From: Escherichia coli
Lineage (GTDB): Bacteria > Pseudomonadota > Gammaproteobacteria > Enterobacterales > Enterobacteriaceae
Length of the DNA stretch: 64,000 nt
Assembly: GCF_048403405.1 (NCBI RefSeq)
Contig: NZ_CP183129.1
Reading direction: 5' to 3' (one strand)
The notes beneath the pieces are model-generated. The model searched no databases, had not been told where the DNA came from, and saw only the letters and a program-made list of their open reading frames with translations. The position numbers were made by a program, and so were the translations under genes. This document shows positions 54,605 through 55,812 of the stretch, piece after piece (the first letter of the stretch is position 1; each line of letters opens with the position of its first letter).

Positions 54605-54901
54605 TTAGCGATGATGTTTGTCAGGCCCCGGACGATGATCGCCACGATGATCATTGTGCTTGTTATGGCGCGGCGATGGCGGCGGTCCATATGGGTGCCA
54701 GCGATTGCCTCGCCATTCATAATGTTGTTTCCACCAGCCGTGGTCGCGCCAGTGACCGCCATCCCAGTAATAGCCACGATTATCACGATCGCCTATCTGT
54801 AATTTTACTGACGGGACTAGCGTAATTTCCGCAGCCTGCGCTGCCATGGGAGCGACCAGAACCAGGGAAAGTGCGAGTACGATAGATTGCATCTTTTTCA
54901 C
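54605..54901 (-). CDS. yaaX: DUF2502 secreted protein YaaX
   Basis: 98-aa ORF with signal peptide and His/Arg/Trp-rich C-terminus; position matches K-12 yaaX. Confidence 0.85.
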
Positions 54902-55062
54902 AGGTTACTCCTTTTATCATTGCCCGTTATGGGTCGATATCCGGAGATTACGCGATGAGAACGGCAGTTGTTATTCTCCGCAATCCTAATCTCTAAGTTA
55001 CCGCATTTATTGAGAATTTCTCCTTTTTCCCTGTCGTTTTTCTCCATATTTTCTTCATAATA

Positions 55063-55772
55063 AATATCCTCCGGCATAGCCGGAGGTTTTTCAAATGCGC
55101 CTATAAGGCTCTCTTACCAGCCGCGCCCTAACAGGCGCACACGATCTGACATTTGCATCCAACTTCGTTACTTACGGCCCGTAAACGGGCTGCCCGGATA
55201 GGGAATCGATAACTGCTCTCCCATTTTATCCTCTTCAAGCTGGTGCTTTATGTAATCCTGTATCTTCGCCGTGTTCTTACCCACCGTATCGACGTAGTAC
55301 CCTCTGCACCAGAACTCCCTGTTCCTGTATTTGAATTTCAAATCACCAAACTGCTCGTAAAGCATCAGACTGCTTTTCCCTTTCAGATATCCCATAAAGC
55401 CGGATACGCTCATTTTGGGCGGGATCTCCACAAGCATATGGATATGATCTGCACAGCATTCAGCTTCCAGAATCCGTACACTTTTCCACTCACACAGCTT
55501 TCTCAAAATACTGCCTATTGCTCTACGCTTCTCTCTGTAGAACACCTGTCTTCGGTATTTTGGCGCAAAAACTATGTGATATTTACAGTTCCATCGGGTG
55601 TGCGCTAAGCTCTTTTCGTTCCCCATTGGGACCCCCTTTTGATTTCTTGTTTGACACTTGCAGTTGCCAGACCGCAAGGTGTTTTAACAAATCAAAAGGG
55701 GTTTTAATAACTGGCTTAAAGCTGAAAGCTTTCCGGAACCCCCAGCCTAGCTGGGGGTTTTCTGTGCACAAC
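55063..55772 (-). mobile_element. IS200-family insertion sequence (IS200/IS605 family, single-ORF type)
   Basis: about 710 bp absent from K-12 at this site; boundaries found by aligning flanks to the recalled K-12 thrC-yaaX spacer (…TTCTTCATAA | IS | AAAAAAGCCGGGCTG…); encodes HUH Y1 transposase; sub-terminal perfect hairpin CCCCCAGCCTAGCTGGGGG. Confidence 0.85.
55168..55626 (-). CDS. tnpA: IS200 transposase TnpA (HUH single-strand Y1 transposase)
   Basis: ORF track 55168..55677; trimmed to 152 aa MGNEKSLAHTRWNCKYHIVFAPKYRRQVFY...HIHMLVEIPPK...FWCRGYYVDTVGKN, carrying the HuH motif and catalytic Tyr region of IS200 TnpA. Confidence 0.9.
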   Translation of the reverse strand: MGNEKSLAHTRWNCKYHIVFAPKYRRQVFYREKRRAIGSILRKLCEWKSVRILEAECCADHIHMLVEIPPKMSVSGFMGYLKGKSSLMLYEQFGDLKFKYRNREFWCRGYYVDTVGKNTAKIQDYIKHQLEEDKMGEQLSIPYPGSPFTGRK

Positions 55773-55774
55773 AA

Positions 55775-55812
55775 AAAAGCCGGGCTGCATAAAAGCAAAC
55801 CCGGCCTGATTG
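55775..55812 (-). terminator. thrC (thr operon) rho-independent terminator
   Basis: on minus strand GCCGGGTTTGCTTTTATGCAGCCCGGCTTTTTT just after thrC stop; the IS200 insertion begins immediately after the U-tract. Confidence 0.8.

Follow-up and report, generated by a model that had tools for sequence, protein, structure and literature searches.

An IS200C copy between thrC and yaaX of Escherichia coli with the structured left end known from Salmonella IS200

The window analysed here, a 64,000-nucleotide stretch of Escherichia coli DNA (contig NZ_CP183129.1), carries part of the thr locus on its minus strand, with an open reading frame of 152 amino acids between thrC and yaaX (Table 1). A megablast search of 5426 complete E. 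coli genomes returned, for the 1-kb region around this frame, a 100% identical match in strain TUM14771; RefSeq labels that locus as an IS200/IS605-like element IS200C family transposase. The element occupies the thrC–yaaX site in only 8 of the 5426 genomes, nearly all others showing the empty junction.

Table 1 Features of the thrC–yaaX region, in window positions
Feature	Position	Strand	Basis or remark
thrB	58048..57116	-	ORF list; E. coli thr locus
thrC	57115..55829	-	ORF list
Host thrC intrinsic terminator (GCCGGG...CCCGGC + T6)	55805..55773	-	Read from sequence; adjoins the left end of the insertion sequence, outside the element
IS200C insertion sequence, 713 bp	55771..55059	-	Empty-site comparison; left boundary ± 1–2 nt
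Sub-terminal left-end hairpin, AACCCCCAGC-TAG-GCTGGGGGTT	55759..55737	-	IS200 nt 12–34
Small hairpin, AAAGCT-TTC-AGCTTT	55732..55718	-	Start of the tnpA transcript (~nt 40); Rfam consensus structure, RNAfold
Long 5'UTR stem-loop	55701..55633	-	IS200 nt 70–138; upper stem-loop is the art200 pairing site
Shine–Dalgarno sequence of tnpA, AAGGGGGT	55638..55631	-	Same as the published IS200 Shine–Dalgarno sequence
tnpA coding sequence, 152 aa, Y1 HUH transposase	55626..55168	-	ORF list, Pfam, PDB relatives; between thrC and yaaX
art200 antisense RNA, mapped position	55617..55707	+	Published start nt 153/154, 90-nt length
Predicted art200 promoter	55582..55611	+	-35 TTTACA 55582..55587, 18-nt spacer, -10 TAAGCT 55606..55611
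Sub-terminal right-end hairpin, CCTCCGGC-TAT-GCCGGAGG	55086..55068	-	Sequence, fold
Right-end tail, ATATTTATT, 9 nt	55067..55059	-	Hairpin foot to 3' terminus
yaaX	54901..54605	-	ORF list; yaaA and yaaJ further on, plus strand

The boundaries of the element were mapped against two empty sites, those of K-12 BW2952 and of the closer strain BH100N, whose ThrC protein is the same as that of TUM14771. The empty junction reads ...GCAGCCCGGCTTTTTT/ATGAAGAAA in K-12 BW2952 and ...GGCTTTTTTT/ATGAAGAAAATATGG in BH100N, while the occupied junction of the window reads ...GGCTTTTTT-G-TTGTGCACAG...GGAGGATATTTATT/ATGAAGAAAATATGG. Against both sites the insert measures 713–714 bp, without target duplication, and its left boundary falls at 55771/55772. 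A 1-nt ambiguity at the junction arises because the T7 of the closest empty site stands as T6G in the occupied one: counted in the element, the G at 55772 gives 714 bp, and read as a T-to-G change it gives 713 bp. Other IS200C copies have sequence in common only from TTGTGCACAG onward, and we therefore place the element at 55771..55059. The two element ends, TTGTGCACAG and ATATTTATT, are not related as an inverted repeat. Together with a length of ~0.7 kb, a single ORF and sub-terminal hairpins at both ends, this lack of terminal inverted repeats is a trait of the IS200 group. The element is an intact, ordinary IS200-type copy of IS200C on the minus strand, directly past the thrC terminator, which is also present in both empty sites.

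By its sequence, the encoded transposase TnpA is full-length and intact. It matches the Pfam Y1_Tnp profile with 130.7 bits (cutoff 23) over profile positions 2–121 of 121, and it carries the HUH motif (HIH) at residue 61 as well as Tyr125, the residue mutated for enzyme inactivation in work on Salmonella IS200 (PMC4513863). Its relatives in the PDB are 2ec2, 2f4f and 2a6m, the last of these being IS608 TnpA at E = 4e-19.

For comparison, we used IS200 of Salmonella enterica, in which the left-end terminator and stem-loop were described (Beuzon 1999, as reported in later papers; Ellis 2015, PMC4513863), retrieving four copies by exact look-up of the TnpA protein. Positions 1–50000 of the Salmonella plasmid pSLT held no canonical IS200, only a distant ‘IS200-like’ ORF, and a plasmid search with the Rfam consensus gave as top matches Yersinia IS1541 at 95%, not Salmonella IS200. 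Both elements are 713 bp long and differ by 55 mismatches and no indels (~92% identity); the host and site here, E. coli and thrC–yaaX, are unlike those of the Salmonella element. The left-end hairpin, the lower stem of the leader, the Shine–Dalgarno (SD) sequence and the position of the start codon are identical. Between GAAAAC and the ATG, a stretch of 139 nt, 5 mismatches separate this copy from Salmonella, none of them in the left-end hairpin, small hairpin, lower stem or SD; five changes fall in the region of the upper stem and internal loop. Of the first 9 nt, 4 are different (TTGTGCACA versus TTGTCTATG), and the right end differs at 3 positions, leaving its hairpin and tail unchanged. 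With nt 1 set at window position 55770, all published Salmonella IS200 coordinates fall on the corresponding features of the window, the terminator (nt 12–34) and the stem-loop (nt 69–138) landing exactly. A preliminary description of this DNA had likened the region to the known IS200 design, in which one structure blocks read-in transcription and another blocks translation, and had proposed comparison with the Salmonella left end. The comparison bears this out, and both blocks have been demonstrated experimentally for Salmonella IS200 (PMC5435999, PMC4513863).

The left-end hairpin consists of two fully complementary 10-nt arms and a 3-nt TAG loop, and is located 12–13 nt inside the left end of the element. 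The preliminary description had correctly noticed this hairpin, giving its position as 55738..55762, which is offset by 1–3 nt. It had also called the structure a perfect palindrome; the arms are indeed complementary, and the whole is an inverted repeat with a 3-nt spacer rather than a strict palindrome. The further statement that the element begins with this AACCCCC hairpin was wrong, the empty-site comparison showing that the start had been placed 12–13 nt too far in. The same mapping puts the hairpin inside the element, in a sub-terminal position, as had been proposed. On its own the hairpin folds at -18.7 kcal/mol; its motif has a single occurrence in the window, shuffles giving an expectation of 0, and its 23-nt sequence is the same in all four Salmonella copies. 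In Salmonella, nt 12–34 form the published bidirectional terminator against read-in (PMC4513863), at which ~85% of impinging upstream transcripts end (PMC5435999). Given this identity, the hairpin would be expected to act as a terminator in the present copy as well. Directly past it, the tnpA-sense strand reads CCGGAAAGC, with no U-tract, so that the published ~85% termination rests on no canonical U-tract; a clearer U-tract, UUUUCUGUG, is found on the antisense strand. Our consensus terminator scan did not flag the hairpin. Because it is upstream of the tnpA start (~nt 40), it would act on read-in transcripts and not on the mRNA of tnpA itself.

At the opposite end of the element, the right-end hairpin folds at -15.9 kcal/mol, is terminator-like on both strands and, with its tail, is identical in Salmonella IS200. 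The extent of the tail was set by the junctions with flanking DNA in 5 E. coli and Salmonella copies and in many relatives. One consensus is common to both hairpins: the left core, GAAAA-CCCCCAGC-TAG-GCTGGGGG, and the right hairpin in its context, GAAAAA-CCTCCGGC-TAT-GCCGGAGG, differ at stem positions 3 and 6, with compensation in the opposite arm. Across phyla, the right-end hairpin occurs as CCACCGGC, CCCCCGGC, CCGCCGGC and CCACCAGC, the same positions varying and always being compensated. The distances from hairpin to end are asymmetric, about 14 nt at the left and 9 nt at the right. Asymmetric hairpin-to-end distances are known from IS608. The TnpA of IS608 reads sub-terminal hairpins on one strand, and its structure has been solved (cited via PMC5027513). 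The layout of the present element is what would be expected for a transposase that reads hairpins in this way, and the left-end hairpin is presumably the DNA hairpin bound by TnpA. This assignment, made in the preliminary description from the left end, gains strength from the right end, whose hairpin follows the same consensus and differs from the left one in a compensatory manner. In the IS200 literature that we consulted, we found neither a demonstration of TnpA binding to IS200 ends nor a solved structure of TnpA–DNA recognition.

It could be argued that, as in IS608, the left-end hairpin is kept for the Y1 transposase alone, as a single-stranded DNA site, with terminator activity incidental or negligible here. 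The shared consensus of the two hairpins, each following GAAAA(A), and their asymmetric end distances would suit such a role, as would the lack of a sense-strand U-tract and the position of this copy already behind the thrC terminator. However, the same sequence terminates ~85% of upstream transcripts in Salmonella (PMC5435999), and the roles of DNA site and terminator are compatible with each other. We regard an exclusive DNA role as unlikely, and favour a hairpin that serves both.

Downstream of the left-end hairpin, the leader of tnpA contains a long stem-loop whose lower stem comprises 13 bp, formed by CCCCTTTTGATTT (55701..55689) and AAATCAAAAGGGG (55645..55633). Within it, CCCCTTTTGAT (55701..55691) and ATCAAAAGGGG (55643..55633) are exact complements. 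The preliminary description had pointed to a segment complementary to the SD at about 55690..55700 and 55632..55642; the pairing is there and extends to the 13-bp stem, the positions having been slightly off. The SD, AAGGGGGT, is located in the 3' arm, and 4 nt separate it from the ATG at 55626. In RNAfold, the minimum free energy (MFE) structure of 55770..55600 has -66.6 kcal/mol with both helices formed and the SD paired, the outcome anticipated in that description. Shuffles of the same interval reach -45.4 ± 4.1 kcal/mol (z = -5.2; 0 of 200 fold as well). When the RNA is folded from the published start at ~nt 40, the AAGGGG of the SD has a P(unpaired) of at most 0.007, and the mean unpaired probability over the SD is equally low in only 3 of 200 upstream shuffles. 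The Rfam family RF01405 matches 55759..55636 with 146.1 bits (E = 2e-31; gathering score 56), and the consensus structure of the family includes the left-end hairpin, the small hairpin and the long stem. The only argument for reading the complementarities as chance features of a leader rich in A/T and G runs, with no function, is that the arms have a low sequence complexity. Against this stand the shuffled folds, the RF01405 match and the hairpin motif that is unique in the window, and we give this explanation practically no weight.

In Salmonella IS200, whose tnpA transcript starts at ~nt 40, the stem-loop at nt 69–138 sequesters the SD AAGGGGGU and blocks 30S binding (PMC4513863). Mutations in the lower stem relieve repression independently of art200, and disruption of the stem gives a de-repression of ~10-fold or more (PMC4513863). 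The Salmonella 5'UTR is also processed to a trans-acting small RNA (PMC5435999). In the copy studied here, the predicted fold buries the SD in the lower stem, and translational repression would be expected from a lower stem identical to that of Salmonella.

The antisense RNA art200, which did not figure in the preliminary description, maps across the same stem. In Salmonella it starts at nt 153/154, spans the first three tnpA codons in antisense orientation and, with Hfq, adds an independent layer of repression; art200 is abundant there and tnpA mRNA scarce (PMC4513863). The art200 interval has a single mismatch to Salmonella, at element position 152, and the promoter region (element positions 153–204) has none, so that expression of art200 from this copy may be expected. 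On the antisense strand, the sequence from 55618 folds as a mirror of the long stem, followed by UUUUAAU. The promoter hexamers in Table 1 are putative, having been assigned by eye; a consensus promoter scan returned no promoter for art200 or tnpA, which is consistent with the weak or atypical promoters in the literature. The -35 of art200 has been called good and its -10 almost unrecognisable (PMC4513863), a comment that the reading of TTTACA and TAAGCT fits.

To follow the structure across relatives, we scanned one genome per species with a degenerate pattern and obtained 120 loci with the motif HTRWNCKYHIV. Alignable 5' regions came from Edwardsiella, Brenneria, Yersinia, Dickeya, Tatumella, Vibrio, a Desulfovibrio MAG and an Oscillospiraceae MAG, giving an alignment of 12 non-redundant sequences (A3). 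In A3, 93.3% of cells are paired in the named structure, and 9 pairs are compensatory, compared with 3.2 in shuffles (0 of 500 as high) and 1–3 in slid controls. The SD helix changes from CCCC/GGGG to CTCC/GGAG; in Vibrio, TTTTGAT/ATCAAAA becomes TTTCAAT/ATTGAAA; and in the left-end hairpin CCCCCAGC becomes CCTCCCGC or CTCCCGGC. With a covariance model (R1), most of the retrieved loci were matched over the full length, including those of Clostridia, Bacilli, Fusobacteria (Propionigenium), Mailhella, Pasteurellaceae, Lentisphaeria and a spirochaete MAG. The resulting alignment of 53 sequences from several phyla (A5) has 90.8% of cells paired, compared with 71.1% when shuffled and 35–47% in slid controls, and compensatory changes at 40 of 42 pairs; it was fitted to the model structure, which inflates the pair counts, yet the margin is large.

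The individual helices behave alike. The long 5'UTR stem is paired in 93.9% of cells in A3 and in 92.2% in A5, where 15 of 15 pairs have compensatory changes; the small hairpin is paired in 91.7% (A3) and 78.7% (A5). In A5 the left-end hairpin is paired in 96.6% of cells with 9 of 10 pairs compensatory, a covariation that does not by itself separate selection on RNA from selection on a DNA hairpin. The strong covariation in A3 and A5 refutes chance complementarity. The 139-nt left-end architecture is thus kept in Enterobacterales, Vibrio, Pasteurellaceae, Desulfovibrionaceae, Fusobacteria, Clostridia and Bacilli.

Watson–Crick covariation is blind to the strand, and the long inverted repeat could be kept mainly as the structure of the art200 RNA (a stem plus U-tail that binds Hfq), with SD sequestration as a by-product. 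The equivalent antisense stem with its UUUUAAU tail, and the excess of art200 over tnpA mRNA in Salmonella, agree with this. By contrast, lower-stem mutations increase ribosome binding and expression without involvement of art200 (PMC4513863), and the paired 3' arm is always on the SD, even where GGGG has become GGAG along with CCCC to CTCC. Moreover, an upper-stem G-U pair, kept in 12 of 12 sequences in A3 and 29 of 53 in A5, would read C-A on the antisense strand, a sign that selection acts on the RNA of the sense strand. We therefore consider a structure kept chiefly for art200 quite improbable, and sequestration of the SD the better account of the stem.

Taken together, the region is, with a probability of roughly 0.9, the left end of an intact IS200C in which DNA and RNA control elements overlap in one module that works as in Salmonella IS200. 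For this copy, the sequence, boundaries, fold, near-identity, covariation and relatedness of the left and right hairpins were computed, and the functions were transferred from the 92%-identical Salmonella element. As top-strand (transposed-strand) DNA, the hairpin at nt 12–34 would be the binding site of the Y1 transposase. As RNA, it would end read-in transcripts, here read-through of the thr operon past the thrC terminator, 14 nt upstream of the hairpin. The tnpA mRNA would start at about nt 40, and its 13-bp lower stem would hide the SD, such that 30S subunits rarely bind. Pairing of art200, transcribed from the opposite strand, with the upper stem-loop would add a second block to translation. 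The net outcome would be near-silent expression of the transposase, and the thrC–yaaX intergenic region thus carries an intact and, by analogy, tightly silenced IS200C copy. The left-end hairpin and the SD-hiding stem are already known, well-studied features of IS200, and this left-end design is recognisable from the raw sequence alone.

Other systems share parts of this architecture. Yersinia IS1541A has the same organisation, and its left-end hairpin and lower stem are identical; over the element it is 87% identical, with more divergence in the coding sequence and in the spacer that separates the hairpins. In Rfam, the full model of RF01405 (STnc490 Hfq-binding RNA, positions 1–124) is matched, on the tnpA-sense strand and starting at the left-end hairpin. 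The published STnc490/art200 is an antisense RNA that extends from nt 153 to about nt 64 (PMC4513863, PMC2515195), and what RF01405 in effect models is the structured left end rather than this antisense RNA. IS608 and ISDra2, for which TnpA–hairpin complexes have been solved, likewise have a Y1 HUH enzyme and sub-terminal hairpins at both ends, with neither terminal inverted repeats nor target duplication. IS200 differs from them in its perfect 8–10 bp GC-rich stems with 3-nt loops, in having no tnpB and in its target, which is a T-rich run after a hairpin instead of TTAC or TTGAT.

The site of insertion itself, a context absent from the preliminary description, is directly past the T-run of the thrC terminator, with the element oriented along the thr sense strand. 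Insertion 3' of a defined short target on the lagging-strand template is a trait of the IS200 group; by the replichore geometry of E. coli, the thr sense strand would be that template. Of 28 distinct left flanks in related elements, 26 have a host terminator-like hairpin plus T-run at their end; the flanks are T-rich runs after hairpins, with no single tetra- or pentanucleotide as a common target. Transposases of the IS200 clade may choose host intrinsic terminators as targets, the single-stranded terminator (a GC hairpin with a T-rich tail of ~6–9 nt) mimicking the right end (hairpin plus ATATTTATT); we advance this tentatively, as possible though doubtful. Under such mimicry, the left end would land directly 3' of the terminator and in a single orientation, and the left-end hairpin would be, beyond a shield against read-in, one half of a hairpin-reading system that defines the target. 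A 2025–26 preprint has reported the statistical enrichment, reading it as expression control rather than targeting. The near-invariable position just past host terminators bears on target choice by IS200-type transposases. These comparative by-products, the conservation of the left end and the terminator-adjacent sites, are of modest general interest, and the left-end module is of little import for the window itself.

One covariance model detects the whole 139-nt IS200 left end, comprising the left-end hairpin, a small hairpin and the stem that sequesters the tnpA Shine–Dalgarno sequence, in IS200 relatives. Relatives with this complete architecture were drawn from loci L007–L126, and their hosts include Clostridia, Bacilli, Fusobacteria, Desulfovibrionaceae, Pasteurellaceae, Lentisphaeria and a spirochaete MAG. 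Such conservation is unusually strong for a non-coding leader. The Rfam family RF01405, named 'STnc490', matches the tnpA-sense strand from the left-end hairpin onwards. Because published accounts have STnc490/art200 as an antisense RNA that extends from nt 153 to about nt 64, the RF01405 model appears to depict the left end on the sense strand and not the sRNA of the same name.

The hairpins at the left and right ends follow a common consensus, GAAAA(A)-CCNCCNGC-TNN-GCNGGNGG, and where they differ, at stem positions 3 and 6, the changes are compensatory. An A-run lies 5' of each hairpin, and cleavage is predicted at T-rich points, after TTTT in the left flank and after TATT at the right end. 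In IS608, guide and cleavage-site tetranucleotides pair; by analogy, the A-runs of IS200C could pair with its T-rich cleavage points as their putative counterparts. Two further small hairpins precede the right-end hairpin, and the one with the TTATA loop covaries in distant elements (GGGC-TTT-GCCC and CCCC-TTATA-GGGG). Read antisense to tnpA, the left-end hairpin leads into TTTTCTGTG, which makes a better intrinsic-terminator tail than the sequence that follows this hairpin on the sense strand. This arrangement could end outward antisense transcription towards thrC.

Coordinates of features in the window and of degenerate copies elsewhere
Feature	Position	Strand	Remark
thrC terminator	55773..55805		abuts IS200C left end at 55771
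Left-end hairpin consensus	55737..55762		followed by TTTTCTGTG on the + strand
RF01405 match	55636..55759	-	tnpA-sense
Small hairpin GCGCC-TGTTAG-GGCGC	55123..55138	-	between tnpA stop codon and right-end hairpin
Small hairpin GCC-TTATA-GGC	55099..55109	-	between tnpA stop codon and right-end hairpin
Right-end hairpin consensus	55068..55090
Solo left end, E. coli IncF plasmid NZ_CP083479.1	L004:1201-1337		75% identical; covariance model R1, 75.5 bits, full length
Truncated copy, Citrobacter youngae	L121:8680-8822
Truncated copy, Enterobacter sp.	L011:1901-2041

In nearly all independent IS200-clade copies, a GC-rich host hairpin with a T-run lies directly 5' of the left end, in a single fixed orientation (the window copy, L003, L005, L006, L024, L044, L045, L060, L071–L082, L096 and L129–L132). 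In 26 of 28 unique left flanks, a perfectly paired hairpin with a stem of 5 bp or more ends no more than 12 nt from the junction; the same holds for 7.7% of random 45-mers. Three of the four Salmonella IS200 copies fetched carry a clear hairpin and T-run at the left junction; in the fourth, L132, this feature is only partially present. The enrichment has been reported in statistical terms in a 2025–26 preprint; the terminator-adjacent position may reflect either targeting or selection. At the window junction, base 55772, between the thrC T-run and the common element start, is a G, where the closest empty site, that of strain BH100N, has a seventh T. For this G there are two explanations: a substitution at the junction, or a nucleotide brought along from an earlier donor site.

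The diverged solo left end on the IncF plasmid, which lacks both tnpA and a right end, is likewise placed after a hairpin and T-run. It passes straight into sequence near iss that encodes MKLCVMMLPLVVVGC, a peptide similar to the lipoprotein signal peptide of lambda Rz1, and ~314 plasmid records fall within the 60–80% identity band. The solo left end appears to be an old IS200 relic within a prophage remnant that is widespread on such plasmids. The Citrobacter youngae and Enterobacter copies are missing the 5' arm of the left-end hairpin together with all element sequence upstream of it; they retain the remaining leader and tnpA and are presumably immobile.
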